Below the pieces are notes generated by a model. That model was not told the DNA's origin and made no database searches. It saw only the letters and a list, made by a program, of their open reading frames with translations. The translations under genes and the position numbers were made by a program. Shown in pieces: positions 11,168 through 55,114 of a stretch of DNA of 64,000 bases. Source of the DNA: Daphnia carinata. Taxonomy: Eukaryota. The stretch spans positions 6,944,001 through 7,008,000 of the forward strand of contig NC_081332.1 of NCBI RefSeq assembly GCF_022539665.2, written 5' to 3'. Each line of letters starts with the position of its first letter. Position 1 is the stretch's first letter.

Positions 11168-11169
11168 TA

Positions 11170-21304: not shown

Positions 21305-21507
21305 TGTAAAGTTTCCAAATCCCGTGTACTTGCAGTGAGTTGCCGAAACAACTCCGCCTTACATGTTACAATCATGCAGTACTTATACTACTAAAGGATA
21401 CAGATATTGAAGGTAAAGTGGGAGGAGATAAGTCCACTTTCAGTTGTAAAACGCTTGAGGAATGTATGAGGTGTGGCTTCCTTTGGATAGCCTTTGGGCT
21501 CGTTACA
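21305..21507 (-). repeat. 3' LTR of element A
   Basis: TGTAAAG...CGTTACA, 203 bp, with an adjacent PPT (aagaggggaaggaa on the minus strand). About 11 mismatches to 51583-51785 by eye. Confidence 0.95.
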
Positions 21508-21775
21508 TTCCTTCCCCTCTTCGATAAGAAGAATTGGTCTTCTAATTTGCATGTTCCGTCACCAACTACATTCGTTGCTATGGGCAAATAAAATAACTGG
21601 TTCCTCCACCTAAGATTTATGGAAAAGAATTGTAGGTAATTTTAATAAAGTTGCTGGCGTATTGTCTTCTCTCTTTTCGTCTCTTATTCTTGCTTTTCTT
21701 TCTGCCCGGTATTTCGGCTATGCTGATTATGGCTTGTTCATTTCCCTCGCGGCTGTATTGTTGATGTTCCTTTCT

Positions 21776-22297
21776 TTAAGTTTTAGTCAGGGAATTACTG
21801 TTATGTTTTAGTTCCCATTTTTGGAATATGGTTTGCGCTCTTGTGCTGCATGTTTCTGATTCAGCCGCGTGTCCATGAGAATCTTTTATTCCTGCATCTG
21901 CTCCGTGTAGCAGTAAAATCTCGATCATGTCGATTCGGTTGAATCCGGTTGCTACGTGTAAGGCGGTTTCGCCTGAGTCGTCTTGTTGGTTGATATTGAT
22001 GATTCTCTTTGCGCAAATTTGGGTGGCCAGATCTTCTAGGCCATACATGGCTAAATAATGCAGAACGATTCTGCCGTCAGGTGTTGCAATGTTGATGTTA
22101 GTTGGTGTCCATATTAACTTTGAACATTCTTGGTTTTTGTGTGAGATTGCCAACATTAAGGGAGTTTCTCCGTTGTAGTTGCGAGCTGTAAATTCGCAGT
22201 TGTTATGTTTTAGGATCCTAAGTAACAGTAGATCATTTTCGGCCGCTGCGATATGGCCAATTGTTTTTCCGTGGTAGAGGTTCTCCAGCGCGAGCAC
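21776..22297 (-). CDS. Ankyrin-repeat protein carried between env and the 3' LTR of element A (5' end degraded or uncertain)
   Basis: Four ANK repeats: GKTIGHIAA, GETPLMLAI, GRIVLHYLA, GETALHVAT...LLLHGAD. Intronless and in the same orientation as the element. Confidence 0.88.
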   Translation of the reverse strand: MLALENLYHGKTIGHIAAAENDLLLLRILKHNNCEFTARNYNGETPLMLAISHKNQECSKLIWTPTNINIATPDGRIVLHYLAMYGLEDLATQICAKRIININQQDDSGETALHVATGFNRIDMIEILLLHGADAGIKDSHGHAAESETCSTRAQTIFQKWELKHNSNSLTKT

Positions 22298-22607
22298 GAT
22301 GAAGAGATGTTGCCGTTTACAAGAATTTTAGAAAAACATTTTGTTTTCGAGCATAATTATATGGATACTGATGCTCCTGATGATTTTGTTATTGATTTCT
22401 GAGTCTGTTAGTTTTCTAGTTGTGTTATTCGGAAATACAAAATTGTTGTTTGAGTTTGGTTGTTTTGTTTGTTTTTACTATAAATTTTTCAAGTATTAGA
22501 TAGTGGCTGGGAGGGTGCTAATTTATTATGGAATTGCCTATAGCGGCAATATTGACTTGTTAGCGGATCATTGTTAATGGACTTCACTTTCAATAACCTT
22601 GGAGATT

Positions 22608-25244
22608 TCACTTTTTGGCTGAATTACTGCTGTCTGTTTCTGGCATGCACCGACATAGGTCTTTCCAGACCATGCCATACCCGACGACGTAAGTACATGT
22701 GGTATGTTTTCCTGTACAACCGTTTAGGTGTGTCAGCTTCTTTGATAGATGGGTAGATTGATGAATTTGGTGCGCTTGGCCTTGGTGGGCTCGTTTGAAC
22801 TTGTCTTTCAGTTGACAGCTGTGCGGGTGCGGACGTTCTTATGAATGGTTGTTCGATGACAATGTCTGAATGGTAATCTGTTTCTCGTGCTGGTAGCATT
22901 GATACGAGTTCGTGTTGTTCCTCTATGCGATCGTCGCATTTTCTTGTAGGCTTCTGGTTTCTACGGATATGATTTTTAATCTTCAGATAGGGTTGCAAAT
23001 GATGAAGATCCGTAAGCATACGAGAAATAGCACAAATCCAATTGCTGAAAGACCTATTATTTTCAATTTGTCGAACCATGAGAACATATGATCTATCTGA
23101 TTATCTTGTTGTTCTGACATCACAATATCTCCAGAATTGGAATTTCCCTCTTGCAATCTGCCTACTAGGTCATTCAGGATATTTAATTGATCCATCTCCA
23201 TTGTCGCGTGTGCTGAGTGACTTTTCAGCGAGAAGTCGAAATTATTAAGGTGGAGTTCTTCAAATTCTGTAATGAGGTCTAGATTAGGCATGTTAATGGT
23301 AGGTTTCTGGCGTATCCAATCTCCTGTTGTAGAATTGCGTTCCCAGGTATGTGGATTTCCATTTAAATTTACTAACGGCGTTTTCCAAAAACAATCGGAA
23401 TATGGGTGAATTGACCATCCATCTGTTCCGATCGTACAATTCTTTCCTTCGTAAGTAAAGAACGGTTGAAATCCGCATTTTGTTTCGTTTGCTGATATAA
23501 AAATCCTTTTGGCTTCGCATTGTTGAAGTGTCATTGCTTGACCGAAGCCTTGTAATCTCGTGCAGATAGGTAAGCCTACTGCAGCTGCAGCCAAAATGCA
23601 TTGGTTTGGGCTAATATAACAGCTTGTGTTCTTTTAATTGCTGATAGTTGACAATAAACGTCTCGAATTTCTTTTGCAAGCTTGTTCTCGTGTTCCGTTT
23701 CGATGCTGATTTTATATTGGTCGTGCATTTTATTTAATTCTTATTTAATTTTGTCGTTGAGTTTTTCAATATTGTTCGGTAGACCGCTCTCCAAATTTTC
23801 ATTAATTAGTGAATCTTCAGTGTTCTGATCTATTGAAATTATCAGGGATTCTGCGGGTGGTAATTTTTGAATGTTTTTTTCCTCGATGGCCTGAATTTGA
23901 CTATATTCTGTTGTAGTCGTTGTTTAAGTTGTTGCTAATGGGGTCATTCCGCTTGTCTGTGTTAATGACTGCGGAGTCGTCGAACTTTCCTTTACTTTTG
24001 TCGTACTCGGCGTAGTCGAGCTTGGCTGATGCGTTATTGTTGTTGCTGTTGTTGTGGAACTTGTCGTTGTGGGCGTTGATGTTGTTGCTATTGTTGTGGA
24101 ACTTGTCGTCGTGGGCGTTGTTGTTGTTGTTGACATAAGCTTTGTAGTTGTAGTGGTTGTTGAGGTTGAAGTTACTTTAGCAGTTGTCGTAGATCTAATA
24201 GTAGTAGTGGTGGGCTTAGTGCTTGTTGACGTGATTATTGGTTTTGTAGTTATGGAAGGTTTTGTTGTTGTTGATGTCATACTGGGTTTGGTTGTCATTT
24301 TTTGCGTTATCGTTGCTTTGTTGGCTGCTGTGCTTGTAGCTGACTTACTTGTTGTCGTGGTTTTACCGTTGTTTTTGTCGTCGTTCCCAAGGTTGTTTTT
24401 ATTATGGGCTTTGTAGTCGTCGTAGCGCTTGTCGTTTTTGTGGATTTTTCTGTTGTGGGCGTGGCAGGGAGAGTGACCATAGTTTTGTTCTTTTCTGATT
24501 GGTTGTTGATATCCCTTTGCATTAGTGGCGGTATAGAGGGGAGTGCTTTCCCGTCCAATGGCTGTTGAGTATGTAGCGCTATAATGGCTGCCGCTGAAAG
24601 TGTCCTTATTTGATGTGGGTTGCGATATTCAAAGCTAAATTGTTGTTTTTTACTGGAGCTGTGACAATGCCCCAGGCTCACACGTCCTACTCTTTGTGTT
24701 AGACACTTCCTATCTGATGATGGTGAATATAAACCAGTTCTATCTGTTGCCAGGAGTTGTCCTGTGTGTTCGTATGTGCCCCAGATTGAGCTTGTGTTGG
24801 CGCATTCCTGGAGAACGAGCATTGTTGTGTTGGCTTTTACACAGTTGTTCGTGTTGAACGGTCTGATGGTGAAATCAGAGGTATATTCGAAAGCTTGTCC
24901 TCGTTCTGTCGTTCTGCTGCAGTTAGCAACTGTAGTTTGTGATCGCACTAATGGGTCATTACTGGTTACCAGTGTTCTAGTTCTTCTTGACATTTGGTCC
25001 AATCCGCGTCGCATTCTTCTAGTGTCATCTGTTTGTTTATTCCGTGATGAGTCAGACACTCGGTGCTTTCCCATTTTTCAACAATCCCCAGTCAATCATG
25101 TCCCAGATTATATTTCCGCTGCCGGGATTAGTTTTTAAAATTCCTCCGAATATCGACGAATTAATCGTTGTTGTTATCGCTCTTCGCTGTTCTTGTTGTA
25201 TCTCCTGCATTTCCGCTAACGTTGTATCCGGGAAGTTTTCTTGG
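22608..25244 (-). pseudogene. Element A env-like glycoprotein, 3' portion (ricin-like domain 2, Thr-rich mucin, C-terminal ectodomain, TM, tail), frameshifted
   Basis: Homologous to the B env at 42215-44810. TM IIGLSAIGFVLFLVCLRIFIIC. Tail with PSAP and CTGKHTTC..DLCRC. A signal-peptide remnant survives at 36075-36151. Confidence 0.9.
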
Positions 25245-26528
25245 AGGTCGGAGAAAAAGGCCCAGACGAAAAAGGCCCACGAAAAAGGCCCATACGAAAA
25301 AGGCCCATACAAAAAAGGACCACTTTTTTTCAATTTTATAAGTGGGCCTTTTTCTCCAGTCAATTTCCATGTTCCTAAACACTTTATATATATACTTTAT
25401 ATACTTGTTTCCAAAATGTAATTCCAACCTCCTATTCCGTGGAAGTTGGAATGTACAAAGGTTGGTAAGATGTACATAAGGTTTGCCGAGATGAAACAAT
25501 GTTAGCTTATGTACGCTAGTTAATCTTTGATTATTTATTCGGTAGCAATCTGATTTCGGATTATGTTAGTATTTATATATTGCTAATATCCCGTTAAATA
25601 AAGTTCATTTTTCACAATTTATGTTTATTTAATTACTATCGCTTCTTCTAATATAATATAAGAAATATATGTTTTTCGCACTCAGCCTTGTTTTGTCCAC
25701 CCTCTTTGATCATGCCCCCCCCCAACCCTTAGTCCATCTCCTTTATAACTTCCCTTTGTCGATACCTATGCCATAGGTAAAGACCACTGATTTGTTGTGA
25801 ATACGGAAACTGAATGAGTTCCGCGTGGCTTTTGTGGTTGCTGGGAACAAAGATATGTTAATACGAAGACTAGTTTATTATTATTAACATTTGATAAATA
25901 ATTTTTATAGGAAGAACATTACAAACTTAAACTATCGTTTGAGATAAGGACAAATAAAACTATTATAATTCAATATTGATTCTCATACCATTTATTTCCT
26001 TATCACATTTTCAATTCTTTTCACGATTACAAAGAGCCTCATAAATATTGTTACGTTGGCAATATCCGATTCGCCACTGCAGTAGCGACAACAGCGCTAG
26101 GACGGAAATCCCGCCCCAATTATGGCCGTCCATTGGAGCACCACCCTCGTCGCCGGATATAAAAGGGGCGATATTGCACTTCTGTGTGGCTTTTTGATTA
26201 ATTGGTTAGGGCAATTAGTTTGCAGTTGTGTTATTAATCCTTTTGGTGAAATACACATTATATTTTAATCTGAAGCACGACGTCTCTATCTTGGTACAAG
26301 ATCCATCCGTGACATGGTGTAGATGCAGGGTAACACCTGTTAGGCTGAGTAAGGTAAGCGCAATTGTTGTTCTTTTCGCACGGGTCTTGGGGAGTTTTTG
26401 AATAAGGAACCTGGAGGCAGGTGCTGTTTAGGGGTCTTTGGGAAGTGTGACCGGCCGGCTAGAAAGTGCCTTAAATTGCCGTGGTACAGGACCACAGACC
26501 TGGCCGATTTCCTTGATTCGCTGTTAGG

Positions 26529-29500
26529 TTGAAGACCCGTCCGAGTAAGTTGTTGAGAGTTGTTGGAGAGAAAGACGTAGCTCGGTGGATGAGTACGGAT
26601 CCGCCTAGGCAGAGCAGGCGTTTACGAGGGTTAGCCGCGTCCCCGATAAGCGGGGAAGGACAACGCAGCGTTGGTCTTGACGGAAGTCAGGCGGAATCTC
26701 TAAAGAGAGTTACAGAAGTAGGGGCACAGACTGCCCAAGCGATCGGCCATACCATTCCGAGAAGAGAAATCGTATCACTGAACCCGATCGGAGAATCGAA
26801 CGCGAGGACAAATTCCTCTTGTAGGTATCGGAAGCTCGTTCAGGAAGCAAGATCGAGAGATAGTGGTGTAGGAGAACAAACGTGTATTGATCCGAGGGAG
26901 CAACAGGAGGTAGCCGAAAAGCAAGGAATCTTTAACGAGTGCTCAAGGGAAGGAAGTGATAAGGGGTTAGACGATTTTTCTGGAGCTTTACCACTCGTGA
27001 TAGCACCAACGCTTGAAATGGCCCAGCGTGCTGAATTTAGGGGAAACGATGGACCTCCCGCCCGTGCACCTGCACAGGCAGGAGGAGCCGTTCAGCGTGC
27101 ACCGGCTCATCCATCGCAGTATCGTGAAGCACCAGTCTTCCGCGGAGGACCAGACGACGATGCCGCTGAATGGATGGAACGTTTCGAGAGGACCGCCAAT
27201 TTCAATGGATGGGGTCCCGCTGAGAAAGCGGAATACTTTGGCTTATTCTTAGAAGGTACAGCAAAGGATTGGCTAGCTTGTCAATTAGGGGAGGTGGTCT
27301 GGGACGATGTTGCTCCGGATGACGCCGAACCCGGGATAAGGGGCCTACGAACCCGATTTTTAGATACATTTCGATCGGAGGATTTCGACCGTTATCATAA
27401 AGCTAGGCTACGTAGCCGAAAGCAGGAGGCCTCGGAGAGGGTCGTAGGATATTTCTACGACGTGCTAAATCAGTGCCGTAGGTTGAACCCTAGGATGCCT
27501 GAAGCGAAGAAAATAGATTATCTGTTGCGTGGGCTTAATCAGCCTTTGAAGCGAGAAATGACCATTAAACAGCCCCGGACGACAGATGAATTTTTGAAAG
27601 CACTCAAGATTTATACTAGGGCATATGAGGATTCAGAGAAACCAAATCAGGCAGTTAATTTTATGGGACAAGCGAAGGATCCTATTCCACCCAAGCGAGT
27701 CACGTATGCTGACTCCGAAGAAAGGCAAACTCCGTTGAAACAAGAAGCCTACGAGTACGACGCAAAGCGAGACGGCACGCGCCAAGGGTCGCATGACGAG
27801 TTAAAAAATTTAATACGCGATATGGCAGCTCGGATAGAAGAGCTGGAACGAGGCACTAAACAACTACGCCTGGGAGGGAGAGGGGAGAAACCTAAACCCT
27901 CCCGAACAGCAGACGGAAGGCCAATCTGCCACCGATGCGGACGCTCCGATCATATTGCTCGTAACTGTGAGACCGATTTGAGTAATACGAGGCCACGATC
28001 ACCAACACCTAGTCGGGAAGGAAGGGAGAACGAAAGGAGACCAGATGGACGTGATGTGGACCGACGCGGACGTGAGAACTCGAGACGAGATGGAAGCCAA
28101 GATGGGAGGAGAAACGTAAGTCGAGAACGCTCGCGTTATAATAGGGACGATAGTAGGGAAAGTCGTAGCCCTAGAACGGTTTCTAGACCTCCAGCGGACC
28201 GTGATCAGGGTCAAATGGCGGTGGGAATGATTTCACTCGAAGAAAAAGGGAAGAAGAATGATGAGCTTAAGGAGGCTGAAAATGAAGACAAAGGGGCTGG
28301 CTGTGAGATGGAATCGCTCGGAGAAAAGGGGGAAGAGAATTGTAAAGTCGAAGAAGGCATAAAGGATAAAGGAGAAAACGTACCGATCTATTTGACCTAC
28401 TCTCCGCGTCTCATATTCGAAGAAGTCAACTGTAAGGGATTGGCCGTCAAGGCAGTTATTGATACTGGAGCCGTAATTTCAGTTGCTTCGCCAAGCCTGC
28501 AAGAAAAGCTAAAAGCACCGTTGGTGGAATGGGAAGGACCGGCCATCATTATGGTAAATGGTCAAAGTACACAACCTCTTGGTGCCATTCAGTTGGAAAT
28601 TGAACATCGGGGCCACAAGGCCAGTGGAAAAATCATTCTCTTGGAAATGAAAGGAATAGAACTACTGTTAGGGAACGATTTTTTAAGCCAGTTTGAGCGA
28701 TTGGTGGTTCAGTACAAGAAGACGGGGGCAGTGGCATCTCTAGGTGAATTGCCAGTGAATGTAATCAACGAGCAGATAATCTCGCCTCCAAAGCTGGTAG
28801 CCAAGATAGGAAGAATGCTGCCACCGAGAACCTTTGCTCTAGTGGAAGTAGAGCTTACCGCGCAAGAGAAAAACATTTGGATGGTAGAGCCTTCGGACAA
28901 GTTAGCTCGAGTCAAAGGCATTACTACTGGGAAGGTATTTGTGTCCAGTGAATCCCCGCTAAACCGAGTGTTTGTTGTGAACTTAACGTACCAGAGAGCC
29001 TATATCCGAGAGGGGACCGTTTTGGGACAGATGGAAGAAATAGAACCTGTTGTTGTGACAATAGATGAGGAAGAGAAAATGGGAATAAAGGATGACGAGG
29101 AGAATCTAGCCGTAATGGCACTCAGTCGAGGAAAGTTCTCTCCGTCCAGCGTCGCCCCTATTCCCAGGGAGACATTCAGGGCTAGGATTGCCGAAAGCTT
29201 ATCACCCCCAGAAACAGAGAGATTGATTGACCTGTTAGAAGAATTTCATTCATGCTTCGCGCTGGCCGATAGTGAGCTGGGAGTTTGTCGTGTGGCCAAG
29301 CATCGAATCGACACGGGCAACACACCACCAGTTCACCAACCTCCGTACAAGAGCGCATGGAAAGAACGAGCCATTGTACAGCGACAGGTCGACGAGATGC
29401 TGGAAAAAGGTGTCATTGAGCCTTCCACCAGCCCTTGGGCATCGCCAGTTGTCTTGGTGAAAAAGAAAGATGGAAATTGGAGATTCTGCGTGGACTATCG

Positions 29501-32024
29501 GAAGCTAAACGTCGTCTCTGTGCAAGATGTTTACCCACTACCGCGGATTGAGGAAACCCTAGCCAGGATGGGGAACGCCTGCATTTTTTCGACAATGGAT
29601 TTAGAAAGCGGATACTGGCAAGTGCCTATGGACGAAGCTGATAAAGCCAAAACAGCATTTATCACGCCCGACGGGCTCTACCAATTTTTGGTAATGCCGT
29701 TTGGTTTAGCTTCCGCTCCCGGAACATTCCAACGGATGATGGACCTGGTACTAGCCGGGCTCCGATGGACGATCTGCCTCGTCTACTTAGACGATATCAT
29801 CATCTACGCGGGGGATACCAGGGAACATCTAATACGACTCCGGCAGGTACTGAGTGCCTTACACAAAGCTGGATTAAAGATCAAACTAGTAAAGTGCCAA
29901 TTTGCAGCCCGGGAAGTAAAAGCCTTAGGGCACGTAATCAGCGGGGAAGGCATACGCCCAGACCCAGAAAAACTAAAGGCAATTGAAAAATTTCCGTCTC
30001 CGTGTTCCTTTCATAAACCCGCTGACCGACTAAAATGTGTTAGGAGCTTTATCGGACTCTGTTCGTACTACAGGCGATTCATTGCGCAGTTTGCGCATAC
30101 TGCTAAACCCCTAACAGACATGTTTTAAAAAAGGGCATGCTTTGTATGGAGAGAACCTCAAGAAGAAAGCTTCAATTTATTAAAACAAGCGCTGATCAGA
30201 GCCGCTACGTTAGCCTATCCTGATTTTTCCAAACCTTTCGAGATCCATCCTGACGCGTGCGATTACGGTCTTGGAGCGGTGTTGTTACAACGCATCGACA
30301 ACGTGGAGAGACCCCTCGCCTACGCGAGTCGTCTCTTGACAAAAGGCGAGAACAATTATTCCATCACGGAAAAAGAATGCCTCGCGATGGTCTGGGCGGT
30401 GAAGAAATTTAGAAGCTACATTTGGGGAATTGAGACCGTGGTTGTGACTGACCATCACGAGCTTTGTTGGCTGTTAAGTAAAAAGGATCTGGCCGGACGT
30501 TTGGCTCGTTGGAGCCTGCAATTACAAGAATTTTTACTAAGGATTGTACACCGTAACGGTAGACTGCATGCGGATGCGGACACGTTATCGCGTTATCCAG
30601 TCAACATTGTCACAGAAACAGATGTGTCACTACCCTGCATAGTGGCAGCCTTAAGTATCGATCATGACAATAAAGAGAAATTACAACGCGCCCAGCAAGA
30701 GGAATGGGATCAAGTGTTTGCTGCAATCAAACGAGGAAAACTCCGAGGGCAGTATCGGATTCAAGATGGCCTGTTATTCTGCGAGAAGATCGTCGATGAT
30801 GGACGACTCCTAAAACTGTGTGTACCCCAAACATTCAAAGAAGAGGTTATGCGCGCTTGCCATCATGACATCACGGCTGGACACCTCGGAACTAGACGCA
30901 CTCTAGCGAAAGTGCGAGCTCGTTACTATTGGTGGAAAATGGACGAAGACGTTAGTAGATTCGTTCGCAGTTGTCGAGAATGCCAATCACGTAAGTCAGT
31001 GTACCAGCGGCCAGCCGGGTACATGGAAGTAATAAAAACAGAACGTCCGTTTGAAAGGTTGGGAATAGATATCCTGGGACCGTTCCCACTATCAAAAATG
31101 GGGAACAAACACATCGTCGTGGCAGTAGATTATGTTACGAAATGGGCAGAAACTAGAGCGCTTCCGAGTGCCGACGCCAAAGAAGTGGCCGATTTCCTGG
31201 TAAAAAGTGTGTTGTTACGTCATGGCGCCCCGCGCCAGCTAACTACGGATAGAGGCCGCTGTTTCATCGCAGAACTCACCCAACATGTGGTGAAGGCCAT
31301 GGAGACTAACCACCGTATGACAACGGCCTATCGTCCGCAAGCGAACGGCTTGGTGGAACGGCTGAATCACACGCTGTCTGACATGCTTTCAATGTATGTC
31401 AGCTCAGATCATCGGGACTGGGATGAGTCACTACCCTACGTGACGTTCGCGTACAATACCAGCCGTCAAGAGACCACCGGAAAGACGCCATTTTACTTGG
31501 TGTATGGGAGAGAAGCCGTTCTCCCCATCGACGCGATGGTAGGCGCGGATCCCAACCCTGCGTCGCCAAAGGACAGGGATCCGACCGAATGGGCAATCGA
31601 ACGTCTCCAACAGGCACGATTGTTAGTGCAGGAGCGCGCAGCCCTTATACACCGTAACCAAAAGGAACAGTATGACAAAAGAAGGAGAGAAGCACCCACT
31701 TACCTGCCTGGAGACGAAGTTCTGGTGTACAAACCTATTCGAAAGGTAGGAAGATCGGAAAAACTTTTGAATCGATGGTATGGTCCATATAAAGTGGTAC
31801 GCCAGACCACCCCAAGCAACTACGAAATACGCCTAGGCCGCTCTCCCAAAACAGAGATAGTACATGTCGAGCGTATGAAATCATTCATTGATGTCGTTGG
31901 AACTCCGCCACCGCTCCCCAAGCCGGACAGCAAGGATGTATCCCCGGAAACGTCACAATCTAACTTACACGAGGCGTCGCCAACTGCCGCCCCAGAAGGG
32001 TCAGCGACCCCGAAACGAAACTGA
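26529..32024 (+). pseudogene. Element C gag-pol with one in-frame stop at 30126-30128
   Basis: Capsid-like gag, CHRCGRSDHIARNC knuckle, VIDTGA protease, VYLDDII RT, RNase H, HHCC and DDE integrase, GPY motif. ORFs 26529 and 30279 share a frame. Confidence 0.93.
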
Positions 32025-40169: not shown

Positions 40170-40372
40170 TGTAAAGTTCCTTATACCTCGTGTATTACAG
40201 TGGATTGTCGTAACAATTCCGAATTTCATGGTACAAACATGCAGTATTTATACTACTTAAGAACACACAAATTGAAGGTGAAATGGGAGGGGATACGTTC
40301 ACTTTCACTTGTGAAACGCTTGAGGGATGTAAAGGGTGTAGCTGTCTTTGGATAGCCTTTGGGCTCGTTACA
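40170..40372 (-). repeat. Internal LTR (3' LTR of element B), a diverged variant
   Basis: TGTAAAG...CGTTACA, 203 bp, same PPT as A. Clearly more diverged from the outer LTRs in its first ~120 bp. Confidence 0.93.
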
Positions 40373-40592
40373 TTCCTTCCCCTCTTCAATAATAAGAATT
40401 GGTCCACCAATTTGCTTTTTCCGTCACCGTCTACAGTTGTTGCTATGGATGAATAATAAAACTTGTTCCTTCACCAAAAACATATAAAAAAGAGTCATAT
40501 GTGTTTTTTAAAAAGATTGTTGACGTAGTGCCTCCTTTCTTTTCTGCTTTGATTCTAGCTTTTCTTTCTGCCTGGTATTTCGGCTATATTGA

Positions 40593-41165
40593 CTATAGTT
40601 TGCTCCTTCCCCCTTTGGCTGTCTTGCTGGTTTTCTCTTCTTTTAGTCGAGAGGTTACCGTTATGCTCCTGTTCCCATTTTCCGAGGAGGGTTTGCGCTC
40701 TTTTACTGCATGCTTCAGTTTCCTTTTGTTGGTCGTCTGGTTTGTTCGTTTTCGCGGAGGTTGACATTGAAGATAGTCTTCACTGTCGTATCCTATTGTA
40801 AAGTCAACACTGTAGTCACTTTCCAAATCGGGTTCTATTCCACTATACGCCATTAATCCCTCGTTTTCATCATCACTTGATTCACTACTGTCATTTACTT
40901 CCTCTTTATTTCCGTAAAAGTCGTTCTTTTCCGTTTCTATTCCATTCCATCCCATGTATTGCACTAATTTCTTGTTTTCATCCGCACTTTTCGCACTTGC
41001 TTTTGCTCTGCAGTCCGGTTGGCTATCCTCACTTTCGGTGTCGTCGATGGTGATCAGTTCGTATACTTTTTCCATTTTCCCGGGGATTATGGTACCTTTA
41101 TAGTCGTAAACTTTGGTGATGAAATTATTAGCCATGTTGGAATGAATTAATGGTACGTGGTGCAC
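40593..41165 (-). CDS. Unknown acidic/basic ORF in the post-env slot of element B
   Basis: 190-codon ORF with an acidic tract (DSSESSDDENE) and a basic NLS-like tract (PPRKR..KRKLK). Sits where A has the ankyrin ORF; no recognisable domain. Confidence 0.45.
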   Translation of the reverse strand: MHHVPLIHSNMANNFITKVYDYKGTIIPGKMEKVYELITIDDTESEDSQPDCRAKASAKSADENKKLVQYMGWNGIETEKNDFYGNKEEVNDSSESSDDENEGLMAYSGIEPDLESDYSVDFTIGYDSEDYLQCQPPRKRTNQTTNKRKLKHAVKERKPSSENGNRSITVTSRLKEEKTSKTAKGGRSKL

Positions 41166-42214
41166 ACTCTGAATTGTGAAACTTTGCAGGATTTATGTCG
41201 TTGAAACACTGGGGAGAGTTTCGCATTTTTGCAAACCTTTCAAAGTTTGTCGCATTGCTTTTCTCTTTTCCTTTAAGTTCTTGATTCTATGTTCTTAATT
41301 TATTAACAAGTTTTCGTGCATTTAATTTTGTTCTCTTTTCTGTTTTCTCACCTTGGTTCTACGTCTTGTGATGCGTTGACAATTGGATTTATCGTAGTGC
41401 GAGTCGACGAAAATCCTGTTTGTATTTGAACTTTCTTTATTCCTTTTTAATTGTTGTCCGTTCTTATAGAGATTTTATTGAACTTCTTGAGTTAGTTATC
41501 TTCGTTCTTTTCTTTCGTAGAGATTACTGCTTCTTTTTGTTGCTCTTGTTTGAATAAACAATTTATATATTTTTTGAGTAATAATCTGATTTCTTTCAGC
41601 AACCATCTTGGATACGCACGTTACCGCGATGTCTATCCTTTGAGGTTCGCCCGGTTTCTTTGGTGGCTGGAGTCTGGTGATGATATTTATCACCCTACTC
41701 CAACGTCTTCTCGGTTGATTGAGCATCTCCAAGAAGAACATGAAGATCGGTTGGCGATAACACATGTTGCCCAGATTTACAATTATCTACTCTATGGTGA
41801 TCCTCTTCCCGGTGGACGAATGATTATATTTTCCTCTGTTTGTGTTATTATTTGTGTTTGTTTGTTATTTTGTAGTTAAGGTGTTAGGTGGAAATACAAA
41901 AAAATTATTCGAGTTTGTGTGTTTGTTTGTTTTGTCTATCATAAAGTTTTTTAAGTTTATTGTTTTGTTTTTGCTTTTGATTTTGTAGATAATTTGTCAG
42001 TTGGGAATACAAAATGTTATTTGAGTTTGTTTTACTATAAAGTTTGAAGTAAGGCACAATGGTAAGGAAAAAAAAATAAGAATCAACTTAATTGTTGAAG
42101 TTTTTAAATGCTGGTAAGTGTTATTCGCTGGGGCTGCTAATTTATTATATAATTAATGAAATTTTCAAGGGCTATGTTTAGTGGCTACTTTTAATTTCGA
42201 TGACCTTGGGACTT

Positions 42215-45200
42215 TTACTTTTTGGCTGAATTACTGTTGTCTGTTTCTGACATGCAACGACATAGGTCTTCCCAAACCATGCCATACCCTACTACGTAAG
42301 TACATGTTGTGTGTTTTCCTGTGCAACTTTTGGGTGTGTCGGCTTCTTCGATAGATGGGTAGATTAATGAATTTGGTGCGCTTGGTCGTGGAGGGCGCAC
42401 TTGACCTTGTCTTTCCATTGTCAGTTGTGTAGGGGCGGGTGTTCTTACGAACGGTTGTTCGATGGCTATTTCTGAATGATAATTTGTTTCTCGTGCCGGT
42501 ATCATTGATGCCAGTTCGTGGTCTTCCTCTATGCCATCATCGTATCTGCTTGTAAACTTCCGGTTTCGGCGGATATGTTCTTTAATCTTCGAGATGGGGT
42601 TGCAAATGATGAAGATTCGTAAACATACAAGGAATAGCACAAATCCAATCGCTGAAAGGCCTATTATTTTCAATTTGTCGAACCATGATAACATGTGACC
42701 TATCTGATTATTTTGTTGCTCTGACATCACAATATCTCCAACAGAATTGGAATTTCCTTCTTGCATTCTGCCAACTAGGTCATTTGGAATATTTAATTTT
42801 TCCATCTCCATTGTCTCGTGTGCTGGATGACTTTTTAGCAAGAAGTCGAAATCATTTAGGTGGACTTCTTCAAATTCTGTAATGAGGTCTAGATTAGGCA
42901 TGTGGATGCTAGGTTTCTGTCGTATCCAATCTCCTGTTGTAGAGTTGTGTTCCCAGGTGTGTGGATTTCCATTCAAATTCACTAACGGTGTTTTCCAAAA
43001 ACAATCGGAAAATGGATGAATTGACCATCCATCTGTTCCGATCGTACAGTTTTTTCCTTCGTAAGTAAAGAACGGTTGAAATCCACATTTTGTTTCATTC
43101 GCTGATATAAAAATTCTTTTGGCTTCGCATTGTTGAAGTGTCATTGCTTGACCGAAGCCTTGTAGTCTCGTGCAGATTGGTAAACCTACTGCTGCTGCGG
43201 CCAAAATTCCATTTGTTTGAGCTAAGATAACAGCTTGTGATCTTGATGATGGCTGATAGTTGACAATACATATCTCGAATTTCTTTTGCGAGTTTGTTCT
43301 CGTGTTCTGTTTCAATGCTGATTTTGTATTGGTCGTGCATCTTGCTTATTTCGTATTTAATCTTTTCGTTGAATTCCTCGATGTTTTTGGGGAGACCGCT
43401 TTCTATATTTTCAGTATTTAATGATTCTTCTGTTTTCTGGTCCATTAACAGGGATTCTGCTGGCGGTAAATGTTGAATATTGTCTTCTTCTATGGCCTGA
43501 ACTTGATTTTTTTCTGTTGTAGTCGTTGTTTCTGCTGTAGCTAATGGGGTCATCCTGGCTGTCTGTGTTGATGGTTGTGGGGTCGTCGAACTCTCTTTTA
43601 CTGTCGTCGTACTTTGCGTAGTTGTGTTTGGCTGGCGCGTTGGTGTTGGAGCTGTTGTTGTGGAACTCGTAGTGGGCATAGTTGTCGTTGACGTAGGCTT
43701 AGTAGTTGTACTTGTTGTTGAAGTCGAAGTTATTTTTACAGTTGTCGTAGGCCTAGTTGTAGTGGTAGGTTTAGTGCTTGTTGACGTGATTATTGGCTTT
43801 GTAGTTGCTGGGGGTTTTGATGAAGTTGACGTCATATTTGGCTTAGTAGTAATTCTATGCGTTGTTGTGAGTTTGTTTGTTGCTGTGGTTACAATTGGCC
43901 CAATTGTAGTCGTAGTTTTTACCGTTGTTTTTGTCGTTGTTCCCAATGTTGTTTTTATTGTTGGCTTCGAAGTCGTCGTCGCGCTTGTCGTTGTTGTGGA
44001 TTTTTCTGTTGTGGGCGTGGCAGGGGGCGGGGCCAATGTTTCATTCTTTTCTGATTGGTTGTTTACTTCTCTTTGCATCAGTGGTGGAATGTATGGGAGG
44101 TTTTTCCCGTCCAATGGGTGTTGAGTGTGTAGTGCAATGATGGCTGCCGCTGAGAGCGTTTTTGGCTGGTGGGAGTTCCGATATTCGAAACTAAAATGTT
44201 GTTTTTGGCTGGAGCCGTGACAATGCCCCAGGCTCACTCGTTCTACTCTCTGTGTGAGACACTTTCTGTCTGATGAGGGTGAATGTAACCCCGTTCTATC
44301 TGTCGCCATGAGATGCCCTGTGTGTTCGAATGTGCCCCAAACTGAACTGGTTTTAGCGCATTCCTGGAGCACTAACATTGTCGTTTTGGCTTTGATACAT
44401 GTGTTTGTATTAAAAGGTCTGATGGTAAAATCAGATGTGTATTCGAAAGCTTGTCCTTGTTTTTTTGTTCTGCTGCAGTTAGCAACTGTAGTTTGTGATC
44501 GCACTAATGGGACATTACTGGTTACAAGTGTCCTTAGTTCTTCTTGACATTTGGTCCAATGCGTGTTGCATTCTTCTAGTGTCATCTGTTTGTTTACTCC
44601 GTGGTGTGTTAAACAGTTTTCATTCGGTGCTTTTCCATTCTTCAATAGTCCCCAGTCAATCATGTCCCAGATTATATTTCCGCTACCGTGGTTAGTTTTT
44701 AAAATTCCTCCGAATAGTGGCGAATTAATCGTGGTTGTGATTGCCTTTCGTTGTTCTTGCTGAATTTCTTGCATTTCTGCCAAAGTGGTGTCCGGGAAAT
44801 TTTCTAGGATGTCTGGATTGGTGTTTACAGTTTCGAAGATCCATTTTTGTGTTATGCTGTTTTTGTCCTTTCTGCACTCTGTTAGTATGATAGTTTGTTG
44901 GTTTCCGAGTGTAATACAGAGGTTTGATTCCTGTGAAATTAATTGATAATTTTGTTGATCTAGGATCCATCTTGTAGAATATTCTGAACATTTGGCCACG
45001 ATCACTCTGGCTGCTTCTCCTTCTGTGATACATATATCACCGTTCTGCACTCGGATTGTTTGGTCAACGATGTATTCGAATTCTGATCCTTGTGGAAGTG
45101 GATCATCGTTTTTGAGACGAAAGTATGAGGTTACCTGGTTGCTTTCTTCTGGTTTGTATATTATGTATATCGTTGCGTTGTAATTCACGAACCGGTCTTT

Positions 45201-46254
45201 CTCTCCGATTCTGACTGATTGTGGATATCCCATTCTGATTGGTCCCCAGGCGTACGAAATGCTGTAAAGGCGTTTGCCTGAGTCTTCAAGGGGAGTGCTG
45301 ATCAAGAACGTAACTTCCTGCTGAATGGATCGTTTCCGTTTGGTTAACTGTAGTTCCCTGTAGTCCTTACACACCGATGTATCTAGGTGAGTGTTCTGAA
45401 TGCATGTATGTATAGTTGTTTTGAACATCTCGTACAGTTTTCTCGTAGTTTCAGTTGGAAAGATTAGGTATGTGAGCGGTATGCCCATAACTTTGTAACC
45501 TTGTGGTGTTATGTCCCGATCTGGTTTTAGTTGAGGAATGAAATCTCGATCTGTCGATTGGTGTCGTAGAGACGGCTGGTGTTTTCGTGTTCTGGCAATC
45601 TTGGGAGTTCTAAACTCCTTTAAGCAGTGTTTGTATGTATGAATTGTTTGTTGTTCTGTCTACCCACACAATTGTATTCTGGTTCTGGATGAAGTGTCCT
45701 TCTTGTTGTGTTGTGTTCAAAGGTCCGAAAGGACTTTCGATTAGGTCGTCTGGTTTTTCTTGTTGTAGCGTGATTCGTTCTGCTACACAGTTGAGGGTAT
45801 GGTATTGTTTTATGGCATACCATTGCCCTTCGCCTGTCGGAGTGGCTGTAAAACTTAGTCCTGCTGGTCCGGTCTGCATGTTGTTATCGCCACACTTCTT
45901 GTCGTTCACCATTCTCCAGCATTCCAGTGGGGTAATTAGTTTAGTTTCTTGTGTATATATTGTGTCGAAAGATCCGATCCAAAATGATCCAGTTATTTTC
46001 TTTGTTTTTATCCATTGCTTGCAGGTCCAGCCTTTCCAAGAAGCTGCTGGTTTCTGTGTCGTTTTTAAAGTGTACAACGTGGATATTCTGGGTAAGTGAG
46101 CTGTATCTGATTCTTTGTTGTTGCAGTAATATGGTGCTTCTATATCTAAAATTCCTCTGGTCTTTACGTTCTTGCAGTCGCATACGGTTGAATAGATGGG
46201 ATATGTGGATGGAATGATGGTGAGTAATTGGATGAGTAATAGTATCAGTTCCAT
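42215..46254 (-). pseudogene. Element B env-like glycoprotein (~1,350 aa reconstructed): class III-like fusogen with two ricin-B-like domains and a mucin region; several frameshifts
   Basis: Signal MELILLLIQLLTII; CDC..C; GWTC..FWIG..ITPLEC..QWYA..IVW; KRKRS; beta-trefoil-like C/QxW/QxF repeats; Thr-rich tract; helix; FGQAMTLQQC..CGFQP; TM; tail. Joined from ORFs 45610-46254, 43095-45488 and 42215-43315. Confidence 0.85.
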
Positions 46255-46277
46255 CTGCGAAAAGAAAATTTGTATGT

Positions 46278-48900
46278 TTAGAATCTCGATACTTCGTGGC
46301 GTTGCCGTAAGTTGTATCGTGGATTCGTCATTCTAGTGCGTGCAGGATTATCTGGTATGGGACCGGGGATATTTGGTGCGATGGTAATACAATTCTCCGC
46401 CCTTGCTGTTTGACGTATATGCGTTCTAGGGACAGGCCTTCTTACGTTGTTACTGAAGTTTGATGATCATGATTTGCTCGTAAAATTCCGTTGATTAACG
46501 GTATAGGGACTACTAATTTTCCTTGTCTATCTGTTAATAGACCTTTTTCATTGATAATAAAGTTGCTTGAGAATTTCTTATTTCTATTTTTCTGGCTATC
46601 TTCTTGTATTTTCATCATTAGTTTTTGACAATATTTATCTGCTTGCTGTAGTTCTATCCATCTGTCTTCTCTCCAAGACCTTTTACTTTCACTTCCAAAT
46701 TCTCTTTCGAAACCTACGCTCTTCTTTTGAAGACTTTCCCTCTCAAAACTTTCGCTTTCGTTTTGAATACTTCCATTTTCTTTCTCTAGGTGTTCTTGTT
46801 TCTTTAATCTTTCGATCCTTAGCTTTTCTTTTAGTCTTTCACTTTCTTTTCAAATATTTTCAAGCTCTCTTATGACGGTTCTTTTTTCCATTGCCCTTGT
46901 TTCTACTCGTGCTAGTGGCACTATGGGAATACGGCTTAGGGTGTCAGCATTTTGGTGCGACTTCCCAGGCCGGTACCCAATGACGATGTCAAATTCTTGT
47001 ATTTTTAGTGCCCGTCTAGCTAATCTTCCTGCGGGTTCTGTCTTGCTCATTAGCCATTCTAAAGGTCTATGGTCTGTAAATACGGTGAATCTGCGTCCGT
47101 ATAGATATGTCCTAAACACGTCAATTGCGTGGATGATTGCGTAAGCCTCTTTCTCTGTGGTTGACCACTTGGCTTCGCGGTCGTTCAGATGTTTAGAGCT
47201 ATACGCTATGACGACTTCCACGCCGTCTGATTCACGGGGTTCCTGTACGTCGGACTCCGCTGAATCCGCTGATCGAGGTAGAGTCTGCATCTGAGCCAAG
47301 ACTGCTCCTATACCATATTCTGAAGCATCTGTGTAGATGATAAATTCGCGCGTGAAATCTGGATACCCTAGGATAGGTCTAGTTATGAGACAGTTCTTGA
47401 TACAATCAAAGGCGTCCCTTTGTTCCTCTCCCCATTTCCACTCGGCTGGTTTTCTTGTTAGCGCTGTCAGTGGGTGGGCTTTATCAGCAAAAGCCCTGAT
47501 GAATTTTCTGTAATAGCTAGCCAAACCTAAAAATGATCTCAATTCTTTCACGTTTTTGGGAGCTGGGTATGTGATGATCGCTTCTAGCTTTTCGCATTTC
47601 TTTCTTTTCAACTTTAGTCCTGCGTCTTTAAGAAGCTTAAACACTGCTTCTAGATGTGTCACATGTTCAGCAATATCATTGCTGAACACTATGATGTCAT
47701 CCAGATAAACCAATGCAAACCTGAACAACACTGATTTCAATATGTTATTCATTGCTCGTTGGAAAGTGCATTTGTTGGTGCATTTGTTAGTCCAAATGGC
47801 ATTCTATTGAATTCGTATTGTCCAAGTTCACAGATGAAGGCGGTTTTGTGTTTGTCACTTTCTGCTATCTCGATATGCCAGTAGCCACTTAGTAAGTCCA
47901 ATGTTGAGAACTAAACTGATCCGCTCAATGCATCAATGGTGTCGTCAATTCTTGGTAATGGGTATATATCTTTTACGGTTATTTTGTTAAGTGCCCTATA
48001 GTCAATACACATACGCATCTCTCCATCTTTTTTGGGAACCATTACATTTGCTGCTGCAAATGGGCTGTGACTTTCTCTAATAATATTGTTATAAATCATT
48101 ACTTCAATTTTTGTTTTGACAATTAGTTTTAATGCTTCTGGTGTCCTGCGCAATCGTTGAGTTATTGGGGCGTTATTTCCTATGTTAATGGAATGTTTTA
48201 CATCAGTTGCTAGTCCTAAATCTGATTCTCTCTCTGCAAATAGAGCTTCGTGTTTGTTCAATAGATGTTCGATTTTAATGCGTATCTCGTCAGGGATATT
48301 AGTCACTTCACTTTCTTGGGTTTGTCCAATTCGTTTTGATTTTTGGTTAATTTCTGATTGGGAAAAAGATTCTAGGCTGCGATAATCTGCTTCTGTCAGA
48401 TCGTTGTTGTAGTTACTATCTGATGATCGATCTGGGAGGAGTGGGATATTAATACCTGCCTTGCCAAAAGTTATGCTGTATACTGGGAGTGTGTTTTTTC
48501 CAAAGCTATGTTCTTTCCCGGAATGATCGTAATTGATCTGACTGTTTTTAGTATTAATTTTTACATTGTTGCTCGATAAGAATTCTAATCCTAATATGCA
48601 AGTTTCGTTTAAGTTTTCCATAATAAAGAAATCATGCTTAATGACGTGATTGGTGTTAATGGTGATTGAAAATCCATATTTCCCTTTTGATTTTAGTATT
48701 TCTCCTGACACCGTTCTAAATATTGGCGAAGGGGAGCCTTTAACTTGTTAAAGTTCTTCATACTCCTTTAGATTAAAAAATATGTTGTCTGAAACTAAAC
48801 TGGCTGCTGCTCCTGTGTCTACTAAAGCTTTAATTTCTTTTCCAAAAATTCTAATGGTTATACGTATTAGTTTGGGTATCGCTGTTTCTAAATTTTGTGT
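46278..48900 (-). pseudogene. Element B pol (PR-RT-RH) with the integrase core deleted
   Basis: ALVDTGA, VYLDDII, TDASEYGIGA. At ~46465, ANHDH joins directly to the integrase C-terminal tail, so ~1.1 kb present in A is missing. Confidence 0.92.
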
Positions 48901-48929
48901 TGGAGCGTTGTTTGGTAGGGATATTGTGT

Positions 48930-51438
48930 TTACTGCATTGGACGGTGGTTCGGGTTGTTGATACATGCCATATCCGTCCAACATTCTCGCGCAATGTGTA
49001 CTCTTTTATTGCACTTGTGGCAGATAATAATTCTATTTCCTAGGTTGTCAGTGGTGTTTGGTTGATTTTGTCGTGGCTGTGGGTATTGATGAGTATAGGA
49101 TGGGTTTTGATGATACACCTGTTGATTGCTATGCGGTTGAAAGTTCGGTCGATTGTAGTGTATCGGTCTGTTGTTGTACGGAGGTCTCTGGTGTGTTTGT
49201 TGGTAAGTTGGGTAATTAGGTTGCCTATACCCTGTGGAGGTACCTTCTCTTCTTGGTGAAGTATAGTTGGTGCGGTATGGGCTGTTATCTCTGCTTCGAT
49301 TGAAGTTTTGGTCACTAATGGAGCCTCTGCTATTCGGTCTATCGTGAAATCGGACTCGCGGATTTTGTGGTCTGGAGTATCGATCACTTGATCGCGAAGA
49401 AGATCTTTGTTCGTACTGATCTGCGGCTGCTATGGTTATATCGGTATCCTGTGACAATTCACGATTTTTATTAGTATTTTCCAGTTCACGTATTTTTTAT
49501 TTTAGGAATTCGATTTCTGTCTTTTGTTGTGAAAGTTCGTTATCTTGTTGTTTCTCGTGATGCGTTATCCCTGCGATTACCGCTTTTATTTCTTTCCCTT
49601 CTGCAGTCTCCTTGCTATATAGGATGCCTTCGGATATGATAAGTTGTTTACATAACTGATCAAAATCTTTGGGGTCTTCGGGCATTCTGAAATAGAGTTC
49701 AGCTCTGAATTTTGGTAAAATGCCCTTGCATCAGAATTTTGATTTTGGTATAGTCTCTCATTCTTTTTACTGTGTTTATGAGTCGGCCTTCGACGATGGT
49801 CTGATTTTTCTTCTTTGCCTTCAATGGACTCGTAGAGGCTGTTGATTCTTTAAATAAAGGCTTTGCATTTCTCTTCAGGTTTTTGTCTTAGCGTAGATAA
49901 CTTTTTTCTTTGTGCTGCTAAGTCGTATGCATCTTGGAATCTTACAATAATGGCAGTTTTCCATTCGTCAAAACCTAACTCGTCACCTTGCCCTTCTACG
50001 TAGTTTCCAAGCCATTCTAGGGCATCGCCTTTAAGTCTGTCGGAGAAGAATCGTATTTTTTGGTTGTCATCCCAGTCGTTGTTGCGTGCTACATGTTCTG
50101 CGTCCTTTAGCCATTCTTTTATTAATTTATCAGTACTTTTCCCTTTGAAAATTGGAATTGACTTTTTGTCTTCTCTCGAAAATAATTCTCCTAATGCTTT
50201 CACAATCGGTTGGGTTGTGGATGTATCGATGCTATCGCTATCCGTTGTGTCGCGGTCAATTCTCGAAGTTTCTTTGTGTGAAAGTTCACATTTTGACTTT
50301 TTCTTTGAGAGTCTGATACTTTTGTTTTAGTTGAAGGAGGTTATCGTTTTGGATCTCGATTTGGTTTTTTAGGTCGTCGTTAAGTTGTTGTAGCTTTTCG
50401 ACTTGTTCTGATTCTAGCTCGAAGTGAAGGGATTTGTCTCCTTCTGTTATTGAGTTTAGGTCGTTTATCTCACTCACTAGTTTCGTTATTTCTCCTGGTT
50501 CGTTGTAGGCGTCGAAGTCTTCGACTTCGGCGAATGTTACCTGTTGCTTTCTATATTCTTTTATTCTATTCTCCAGATACGAAATTTTTTCTTTTCGGTT
50601 TCCTGCCTGTATATTGGACTTTTGTAATTCCGTTTCGAGATTTTTATTCTTTGTAGTACTATCTATCAGACTTCTTCGTAAACCTGCTTTTTCTGCTAAG
50701 GTTTTTTCAAGGATCTCTTTTGTTTCTTTTGTTTCTCTCTGAAGTTGTTTGTTTGCTTCTAAAGCTGCTTTTATCCGTTGTTCGGCGTCTTCTAACCTCG
50801 TAACCAGTTGTTTTCTTTCAACTTCAAGTTTGCTAATTATTTCTTGCCCTTCTCTCTCAACAGCTATATTGTTTTCGTCCTTTTTTCGTAAAAGGTTTTG
50901 GTTCTCTGTTGCTGTGGCAGTTTCAAGGTTGGTTTCTAATTCGCTGATTCGATTGGCATACTTTTCAAGGGCGTTTTTGAGTGCTTCATTACTTTCTTGG
51001 AGTTGCTCAAGGGAACTACTTAGGGTGTATTTGGAACTGTTTGCCTTTTTCTTGTTGCTATCTAGCTGTTTTCGTATACCTTGTAACTCGTAGTTTAAGT
51101 CAGATGAATATTTCTTGTCAGCTATCTGCGCAAGTATTACTTCTTTTTGGAGGACTCTGATTGTACCGAATAGGAATTCTTTTTCTTTACCATGAACAAT
51201 GCTAATCTGTTGCAATATACTGTAAAGGTTTTCAGTGTTGCCACCGAGGGATTCTACGTGATTTTTAAATGGCTTTGTGGTGTTTGTAATAGTTTCTGCT
51301 GTTATACCACTTGGTGCTTGCAACGTTTGTTCTAACTATGAATATAATTGCAATGCGTTGTGTGTCTCTTTGCTAACTTCTTGTTTCTTAGATTCTATTT
51401 GTTGTATATGTGCTTTTGTCGTAATGGTCTGATGGCAT
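48930..51438 (-). pseudogene. Gag of the A/B family: long N-terminal coiled coil, capsid-like domain, Arg/Gln-rich linker, degenerate Zn knuckle
   Basis: ORFs 50286-51323 (heptad-rich), 49850-50203 (PIFKG..EWL..AE..ARNNDW..LKGDALEW) and 48930-49457 (CHKCNKRVHIAREC). Confidence 0.88.
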
Positions 51439-51440
51439 TC

Positions 51441-51449
51441 GCTTACCTT
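51441..51449 (-). promoter_or_regulatory. Putative leader 5' splice donor (AAG|GTAAGC) for a subgenomic env mRNA
   Basis: Consensus donor just upstream of the gag ATG (51438). Pairs with the polypyrimidine-CAG acceptors directly before the env ATG at 46255 (B) and 36152 (A). Confidence 0.6.
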
Positions 51450-51582
51450 TTGATGGTGTTCCTTGGTCTGGTAGAGCTGTTGGAGACTCGTCGGGGAAAT
51501 GTAGAGCACAATCACTGAAATAATTTACGGGTAAGAAACTTTGTACTGGACAACAAGTGTGAGTCTCGTTGGGACAACTAAT

Positions 51583-51785
51583 TGTAAAGTTTCCAAATCC
51601 CGTGTATTTGCAGTGAGTTGCAGAAACAACTCCGCCTTACATGTTACAATCATGCAGTATTTATACTACTAAAGGATACAGATATTGAAGGTAAAGTAGG
51701 AGGAGATACGTTCACTTTCACTTGTGAAACGCTTGAGGGACGTATGAGGTGTGGCTTCCTCTGGATAGCCTTTGGGCTCGTTACA
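51583..51785 (-). repeat. 5' LTR of the A/B compound
   Basis: 203 bp, TGTAAAG...CGTTACA, about 95% identical to 21305-21507 by eye. Confidence 0.95.
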
Positions 51786-54699: not shown

Positions 54700-55114
54700 T
54701 CGTTATTACAGGAAGTTAAATATATTAAAAATTCGAAAATAGTTTTTTACATTATGCTAAAAATTACATCGAAATACGTATCCAAGATTTTGAGATATTT
54801 TAATTTTAGTTTCTTCATAAAAATGGGAGCTTTCTTATTCGAAAATTCACGTTTCAAATGCCCCGACGCCCTGCTTCAATTGCCCAGAATGATTGGCAAT
54901 TGAAACATTTGAAGTATTTTCGGTTTTTTTACCTTTTAACATCTGTTCAAAAATTTCCGAACCCCCCCCCCCCCAAAAAAAAAAAAACAAAAAAACATGT
55001 CTGGATCTTGATAACTAGCTCCAGAACTATATATTTTTTTAACTTAGTTTGACAATTGTCTTACTCGGCGGCAACAAAAATTATTTTTGTGTTCCAACCA
55101 CTACCTCTCTCCCA
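54700..55114 (-). mobile_element. Diverged terminal fragment related to the 8711-10015 MITE family
   Basis: The reverse complement reads TA|TGGGAGAGAGGTAGTGGTTGGAACACAAAAATAATTTTTGTT..., aligning to 8711 onward, including the CAATTG repeats. Confidence 0.75.

Follow-up and report, generated by a model that had tools for sequence, protein, structure and literature searches.

A probable gB-type errantivirus pair in Daphnia carinata

The subject of this analysis is a 30.5-kb block (21305-51785, minus strand) within a 64,000-nucleotide stretch of Daphnia carinata DNA, here called the window (assembly GCF_022539665.2, contig NC_081332.1, positions 6,944,001 to 7,008,000). The block is probably a pair of subfamilies, A and B, both decayed and likely nested, of a Daphnia errantivirus with a glycoprotein B (gB)-type envelope protein (Env), in which β-trefoils and a stalk are built into Env and one acidic-ankyrin gene follows env. 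Pfam matches place Gypsy gag and pol pieces between the long terminal repeats (LTRs) on the minus strand in Ty3/Gypsy order, gag followed by pol with protease, reverse transcriptase (RT), RNase H and integrase. An env open reading frame (ORF) with a signal peptide and a transmembrane segment lies behind pol, and the LTRs are accompanied by a primer-binding site (PBS) and polypurine tracts (PPTs), as in Ty3/Gypsy errantiviruses.

The env amino terminus (domain I-II) connects the block to a catalogued element. Residues 80-239 of window ORF 45613-46332 were compared by eye with the entry for Dcar_errantivirus_6 (supplement file 3 of PMC13524379; Chary & Hayashi, eLife 2026); 149 of 160 residues are identical (93%), an identity that covers these 160 env residues alone. 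Because just 11 residues differ, the window element is, on sequence grounds, Dcar_errantivirus_6-like and belongs to a lineage already catalogued as gB-type errantivirus. The supplement rows give Dcar_6 as a D. carinata element of class ENV_HSV with 7 copies, filed under Branchiopoda_C2, and list Dcar_5, Dsin_4, Dmag_7 and Cdub_7 as sister Branchiopoda errantiviruses of the HSV/gB type (C2c; HSV, herpes simplex virus); the LTR and PBS columns are empty for Dcar_5, Dcar_6, Dmag_7 and Cdub_7 (PMC13524379). An env search returned 48 matches among 1962 candidates, 39 of them named Daphnia magna or sinensis. A Ricin_B domain is present in 44 of the 48 homologues and collagen in 5, and 3 are gene models fused to ankyrin repeats. 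Pattern searching of viral contigs gave 27 matches, none confirmed.

A first-pass annotation of the window had proposed a retrovirus-like lineage with its own entry protein, in a combination not recognized as described. The retrovirus-like Gypsy character, the non-F Env and the post-env genes stand, and the recurrence of env and post-env genes among relatives means that these are not one-off insertions. The lineage itself is already catalogued in the PMC13524379 supplements, and the predicted folds of relatives point to the known HSV/gB class plus an insert, not to a new class of entry protein.

Env has a predicted class III fold interrupted by a lectin-like insert

The env gene of B contains the following features.

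42215-46254, minus strand: env of B, encoding a signal peptide, gB N-half, insert, gB C-half, transmembrane segment and cytoplasmic tail; three frameshifts
45330-45341, minus strand: furin-like KRKR motif at the start of the insert
44832-45248, minus strand: β-trefoil (ricin-B fold) 1, approximate limits
44184-44654, minus strand: β-trefoil 2, approximate limits
43515-44033, minus strand: Thr-rich, mucin-like stalk of 173 residues (79 Thr, 18 Ser, 20 Pro)

Two intact relatives, the env of locus L006 and protein P0203, were modeled with AlphaFold (predicted local distance difference test score, pLDDT, of 76 for P0203), and the models were searched with Foldseek. All listed Protein Data Bank (PDB) matches of both models are herpesvirus gB, with best E-values of 2e-12 for L006 env (TM-score 0.14) and 2e-14 for P0203 (TM-scores 0.30-0.32), the TM-scores being low. 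Among viral predictions, the models match mostly rhabdo-, xinmo- and chu-like glycoproteins and some gB. By these models, Env is an HSV/gB-type class III fold. A sequence search of the PDB with P0015 gave 0 matches. Homology to Baculo_F over the ectodomain was not found in the gB-type env, where the Baculo_F matches are sub-cutoff and transmembrane-proximal alone (E = 3e-4 and 0.01), compared with E = 8e-25 in the env of an F-type element nested in the block. The env is thus unlike the F-type env of errantiviruses, as first proposed.

The lectin-fold and mucin-like parts of Env noted in the first pass are also present. Pfam detects Ricin_B in the env of B (E = 1e-15) and A (E = 4e-10), and the env ORFs of relatives exceed the Pfam cut-off for Ricin_B in 9 of 9 cases. 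β-Trefoils are seen in the models of L006 (trefoil 1, residues 329-475, Z = 17.0, root-mean-square deviation (rmsd) = 2.7, 138 residues aligned; trefoil 2, residues 504-623, Z = 15.6, rmsd = 2.2, 117 aligned) and P0203 (a single trefoil, Z = 16.5, rmsd = 2.6, 131 aligned). The structural matches that gave these Z-scores were filled by trefoils and provided no residue ranges against gB; secondary structure, taken with gB anatomy, would place the insert before the long central helix of gB.

The insert varies in trefoil number and stalk type

A profile search gave 656 relatives at E ≤ 0.001, and the best 150 of the 656 were used. The insert was surveyed in 60 stored proteins that have both gB halves, a set that is biased by the lectin-containing query and includes near-duplicates. 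Insert lengths fall at 22-58 residues (n = 13), 134-258 residues (n = 14) and 376-867 residues (n = 33), and 10 of the 14 proteins in the middle group have a Ricin_B match at E ≤ 0.01. The insert spans none, one and two trefoils across relatives. A furin-like motif after the N-half occurs in 19 of the 33 long-insert proteins, in 1 of the 14 single-trefoil proteins and in 1 of the 13 insert-less proteins.

The stalk slot is Thr-rich in the window and holds 92-94 Gly-X-Y triplets in L002, L004, P0024 and P0136. A 46-row tree of the gB C-half, from which 16 fragments or near-duplicates and one too-short sequence were left out, joins the collagen-stalk forms in one group (support 99/96) within a larger group (100/98) that contains the window copies. 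In the env of L005 and L006 and in P0208, the stalk is neither mucin nor collagen but is predicted to be helical and coiled-coil-like, possibly a third stalk type. A single origin of the trefoil is not claimed: group support is weak (81/48) and there is one loss within the group. Nor is a host polypeptide N-acetylgalactosaminyltransferase claimed as the trefoil donor; it is the top match for L006, nearly tied with many other trefoils, and is not the top match for P0203.

Ratios of nonsynonymous to synonymous substitution (dN/dS), which the first-pass annotation had proposed estimating for each ORF, are 0.07-0.31 for the trefoils in 6 pairs and 0.14-0.74 for the stalk, the fastest-evolving part of env, with several synonymous distances (dS) near saturation. 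The L008 and L010 env genes differ by a dS of 0.25 in the trefoil region, whereas each gB half gives about 2 or more; it looks like this lectin module was recently exchanged between elements.

A splice acceptor-like site abuts the env start codon

Two candidate signals for an env mRNA are present.

46255-46275, minus strand: splice acceptor-like pyrimidine tract and CAG, abutting the env ATG at 46254
51436-51447, minus strand: candidate major splice donor AG/GTAAGC, two bases ahead of the gag ATG

Env starts were compared in B of the window and in 10 loci with a visible signal-peptide Met. YAG stands directly 5′ of the ATG in 11 of the 11 starts, against 79 of 1804 background ATGs, and the 15 bases upstream contain 8-12 pyrimidines. 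The arrangement of AG/GTAAGC and gag ATG is common to the window, L006 and L007 and is not found in L017. The splice acceptor before env that had been noted in the first pass is, as a sequence signal, conserved in these 11 starts. Judged from these signals, env RNA is likely spliced, with the gag-start donor joined to the acceptor at the env ATG.

One acidic-ankyrin gene follows env

Each copy retains a piece of a gene between env and its 3′ LTR.

40507-41135, minus strand: accessory gene of B, acidic N-terminus and C-terminal tail; repeats deleted
21776-22285, minus strand: accessory gene of A, reduced to ankyrin repeats and tail by loss of its 5′ part

A search with the ankyrin ORF of A ranks four D. 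carinata proteins first, and these combine the acidic N-terminus of B and the ankyrin repeats of A in one chain. One of them, P0049, matches the acidic ORF of B over residues 25-176 (60%, E = 9e-56), the out-of-frame tail of B over residues 423-492 (60%, E = 2e-20) and the ankyrin ORF of A over residues 278-498 (77%, E = 6e-108). Because P0049 matches all three, the A and B ORFs are, by this comparison, differently deleted pieces of one acidic-ankyrin gene broken twice. A search for longer proteins with the acidic ORF of B scored 0 of 396 candidates, a false blank resolved by the search with the ankyrin ORF of A. The P0050 cluster has 8 members of 405-413 residues named 'ankyrin repeat domain-containing protein 1-like', a number similar to the Dcar_6 copy count of 7, and these genes would sit within elements. 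This suggests that the multi-copy 'ANKRD1-like' RefSeq genes of D. carinata are retroelement cargo.

The region downstream of env was surveyed in 22 loci, of which 17 have a clear env end and 9 have at least 1.2 kb behind env. An ORF of 347-575 residues follows env in all 9. Six encode ankyrin proteins, of the window type in L004 and L007 and of a second type in L008-L010 and L012; three encode an acidic RING-finger protein, recognized by Pfam in L015 and L017 and by identity in L016. The RING ORF has a dN/dS of 0.21. Among these 9 loci, a 3′ LTR is seen behind the post-env ORF in L007 only, where the ORF is followed by PPT and LTR. A conserved gene between env and the 3′ LTR, as in complex retroviruses, thus recurs inside the LTRs of A, B and L007 and behind env in 9 of 9 loci. 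Since cargo type tracks the env clades, its turnover appears to be deep and rare, between clades and not from copy to copy.

Further ORFs were seen near this position. L017 (10947-13999) and also L016 have four post-env ORFs: one encodes the acidic RING finger, one weakly matches an integrase C-terminal (SH3-like) domain, and two are unknowns. L009 (6618-7208) and L012 (6738-7427), whose ankyrin genes are of the second type, have in common a second acidic post-env ORF (E = 1e-5). In the window, a 127-residue antisense ORF (41496-41879, plus strand) sits in the gap between the env and accessory genes of B; it has no Pfam match and no convincing match in the loci or stored proteins, and is probably a chance ORF.

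Three LTRs frame two broken subfamilies

Self-comparison and motif mapping locate three LTRs of 203 bp on the minus strand. The remaining features of the block, in the order of transcription, are listed below.

51583-51785, minus strand: outer 5′ LTR, TGT...ACA, 203 bp, 192/203 identical to 21305-21507
51564-51582, minus strand: degenerate PBS; its 11-nucleotide core is also behind the LTRs of L006 and L007
48930-51438, minus strand: broken gag with coiled-coil N-part, Ty3 capsid and degenerate zinc knuckle
46455-48950, minus strand: pol of B (protease, RT, RNase H), frameshifted; integrase core deleted
40373-40387, minus strand: PPT of B, GAAGAGGGGAAGGAA, ahead of the middle LTR
40170-40372, minus strand: middle LTR, the 3′ LTR of B, its exact terminus joined to the gag of A
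36178-40169, minus strand: gag C-terminus and pol of A (protease, RT, RNase H, integrase by Pfam), broken
36096-36177, minus strand: env acceptor and short 5′ stub of A (approximate; 36096-36355 aligns with 46199-46455)
25250-36095, no strand assigned: unrelated 10.8-kb insertion in place of the 5′ env of A, composed of a long terminal inverted repeat (TIR) element and an F-type Gypsy
22608-25249, minus strand: 3′ env of A (trefoil 2, stalk, gB C-half, transmembrane segment), frameshifted
21508-21522, minus strand: PPT of A, the same GAAGAGGGGAAGGAA tract, ahead of the outer 3′ LTR
21305-21507, minus strand: outer 3′ LTR, by motif mapping

The outer LTRs are 94.6% identical (192/203), and the middle LTR matches them at 170/201 and 168/201 positions (84%); 36 of 47 variable LTR columns group the outer LTRs together. 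The window PBS differs at its 5′ end from the PBS of L006 and L007, which are intact. The primer may be tRNA-Gln; no tRNA gene was found in the 8 loci scanned. The gag at 48930-51438 is disrupted by an early stop and frameshifts and is possibly an A/B chimera.

Block by block, the identity of A to B is 79-95%, with a dS of 0.15-0.54, and for this reason they are, as far as sequence divergence tells, two distinct subfamilies. The block had been described as two LTR-to-LTR copies with complementary lesions. The gag, pol, env and PPT order is confirmed; two complete copies are not, since there are only three LTRs and A is without its own 5′ LTR or PBS. The lesions are partly as claimed: most of gag and about 1.4 kb of 5′ env are missing from A, and about 1.1 kb of integrase is missing from B. 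They are not fully complementary, in that residues 177-277 of P0049 are matched in neither copy, the env of B is frameshifted at three places, two within the stretch missing from A, and the copies belong to distinct subfamilies.

Alternative readings of the locus and of the insert

The terminal CA of the middle LTR abuts the gag C-terminus of A directly, with no PBS between. Outside the 30.5-kb block, one flank has a gag knuckle and protease remnant (about 52060-52200) and the opposite flank has RT-RNase H (20830-19673) on the same strand; these are gag/protease and RT of one older Gypsy. The LTR identities (94.6% outer, 84% middle) argue for one subfamily nested in the gag of another, and the locus is likely a nested composite rather than two sister copies. 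A would have inserted into pol of the older Gypsy and B into the gag of A in the same orientation; gag-gag recombination would then have deleted the 5′ LTR of B, and further deletions and a transposon insertion would have inactivated both. Some observations pull the other way. The target duplication around the outer LTRs is imperfect, with 3 of 4 bases matching (AAGG/GAGG), and a 7-bp microhomology at the junction, where GAACTTT occurs both in gag and at the end of the LTR, fits deletion in a tandem array as well. L007 (3390-3945) contains a natural head-to-tail tandem of ankyrin gene, PPT, single LTR, intact PBS and next gag, which shows that tandem copies with a shared LTR occur. The block could accordingly have begun as a tandem, LTR-B-LTR-A-LTR, that later lost the PBS and most of the gag of A by microhomology deletion; we regard this as rather unlikely, because the middle LTR is only 84% identical to both outer LTRs and the junction sits exactly on the LTR terminal CA. 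The first-pass view of sister copies that swap cargo in a post-env slot is highly improbable. The A and B ORFs share no Pfam domain, the B ORF alone found no longer homologue, and deep clades do differ in cargo (two ankyrin types and one RING type); the single-chain D. carinata proteins, the ankyrin gene tail retained in B and the three LTRs all contradict a swap between copies.

The insert is likely to act as a built-in attachment arm. It might instead be a shield or spacer, a glycan cloak or stabilizer of the prefusion trimer, and the frequent absence of the sugar-binding Asp, the fast-evolving stalk and the existence of insert-less relatives, one of which (P0164) falls within the insert-bearing group, are consistent with that role. 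Purifying selection on the trefoils, their duplication, and their position atop a stalk that is swapped for rigid collagen in one sub-clade make a shield the unlikely choice. Several results count against a sugar-binding arm on a gB-type fusogen. In a crude motif count, the canonical Asp is present in 5 of 139 C-[LIVM]-x insert motifs, C-x-D being the sugar-binding form; because of this low count, the ligand of the trefoils may be a protein, or they may have none. Of the 33 long-insert proteins, which include near-duplicates, 14 have no furin-like motif. The fold evidence comes from models of L006 env and P0203 and not from the env of the window, and the two-trefoil L006 model is weak overall (pLDDT 57, predicted TM-score 0.29).

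Other elements in the window

The window as a whole is a nest of transposons. Within the gB-type element lies a young Gypsy with an F-type env (26049-34831, plus strand); its LTRs are 98.9% identical, it has a 4-bp ATAT duplication and it has single stops in pol and env. Both errantivirus env classes, F-type and gB-type, are therefore present at one locus. This insertion splits a non-coding element (25754-36071) with inverted arms of about 437 bp that are 97-99% identical, adjoined by 500 bp of AT-rich sequence (25250-25753) that contains GAAAAAGGCCC repeats. A Tc1/mariner element (11167-13629) has 580-bp TIRs that are 98.6% identical and a transposase fragment at 12135-12983. More Gypsy remnants are at 958-3700, 10042-10692, 19673-20830, 52060-52500 and 63221-63976. 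A 358-residue stop-to-stop ORF (56655-57731, minus strand) has no Pfam match, and 8709-9164 and 54648-55116 form a 72% inverted match.

Discussion

In intact members, unspliced RNA would give Gag and Pol, and Env would come from RNA in which the donor near the gag ATG is spliced to the acceptor that abuts the env ATG. Env would trimerize as a class III fusogen. With a furin-like cut where the insert begins, the half with the fusion loops would stay attached, while an arm of two trefoils and a stalk would gain a free N-terminus and could reach out to host-cell glycans or mucus. In the collagen sub-clade, three stalks would zip into one triple-helical fiber. The rise of the collagen helix is 0.29 nm per residue, and a fiber of about 280 residues would be roughly 80 nm long. 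The ankyrin protein, or the RING-finger protein in a distant clade, may modulate host signaling or protein turnover; by analogy, it would work like viral IkB mimics or E3 ligases. At its fullest, this would be an infectious, complex retrovirus-like lineage of cladocerans, with a captured and later doubled lectin fold on a protease-released stalk that switched from mucin to 80-nm collagen, and spliced ankyrin or RING genes that RefSeq lists as Daphnia host genes. This wider picture is tentative and, on balance, doubtful. No clear splice acceptor was seen at the ankyrin ORFs, and the accessory role is an analogy.

Transmission of errantiviruses outside Drosophila has been called elusive (PMC13524379). 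A small, separately foldable trefoil in a laboratory-tractable host makes receptor use directly testable. The graded series of none, one or two trefoils and of mucin or collagen stalks at one site outlines a route for a class III fusogen to gain an attachment module, and the conserved post-env ankyrin and RING genes draw a parallel with complex retroviruses.

The accessible part of the PMC13524379 text makes no mention of lectin, mucin, collagen, ankyrin, splicing or an accessory gene, and that of the preprint none of lectin or ankyrin; supplement file 5 lists unnamed 'extra domain(s)' for Cdub_3 and Dcar_7. The accessible part of Rho et al. (PMC2996953) contains no env discussion that we found. 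No description of a lectin-bearing gB env or of Daphnia post-env ankyrin genes was found in a search that left most subscription papers, Repbase and Dfam outside. Not found in searchable print were two trefoils and a stalk between gB halves, the none/one/two-trefoil range, the Thr-rich or collagen stalk, the furin-like site that accompanies long inserts and the acceptor on the env ATG.

Dcar_errantivirus_6 and its sisters share with the window element the Gypsy gag-pol-env order and a gB-type env, and Dcar_6 also the Daphnia host and 93% identity over 160 env residues. The Drosophila errantiviruses gypsy and ZAM are also env-bearing Gypsy elements that make env from a spliced RNA, but have an F-type env and are not known to have a post-env gene or a lectin arm. 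The fold predicted for the Daphnia Env is that of herpesvirus gB and of the class III fusogens found in rhabdo-, chu- and xinmo-like viruses. The loop ahead of the long central helix carries a basic cleavage site in gB (the furin loop) and a candidate one in the Daphnia proteins, which differ by an insert of 130-870 residues with trefoils and stalk in this cleavage loop. By analogy, the collagen sub-clade resembles collectins and ficolins, which are trimers with lectin-fold heads on a collagen stalk, whereas its heads are β-trefoils and it is membrane-anchored in a fusogen. Extra captured ORFs near env are described for rotifer LTR elements (PMC5408684). The planarian Burro giant Gypsy elements are env-bearing and have ankyrin and RING motifs (PMC6431247); the Burro motifs lie within one polyprotein with an F-like env, whereas the Daphnia elements have separate post-env ORFs and a gB-type env.

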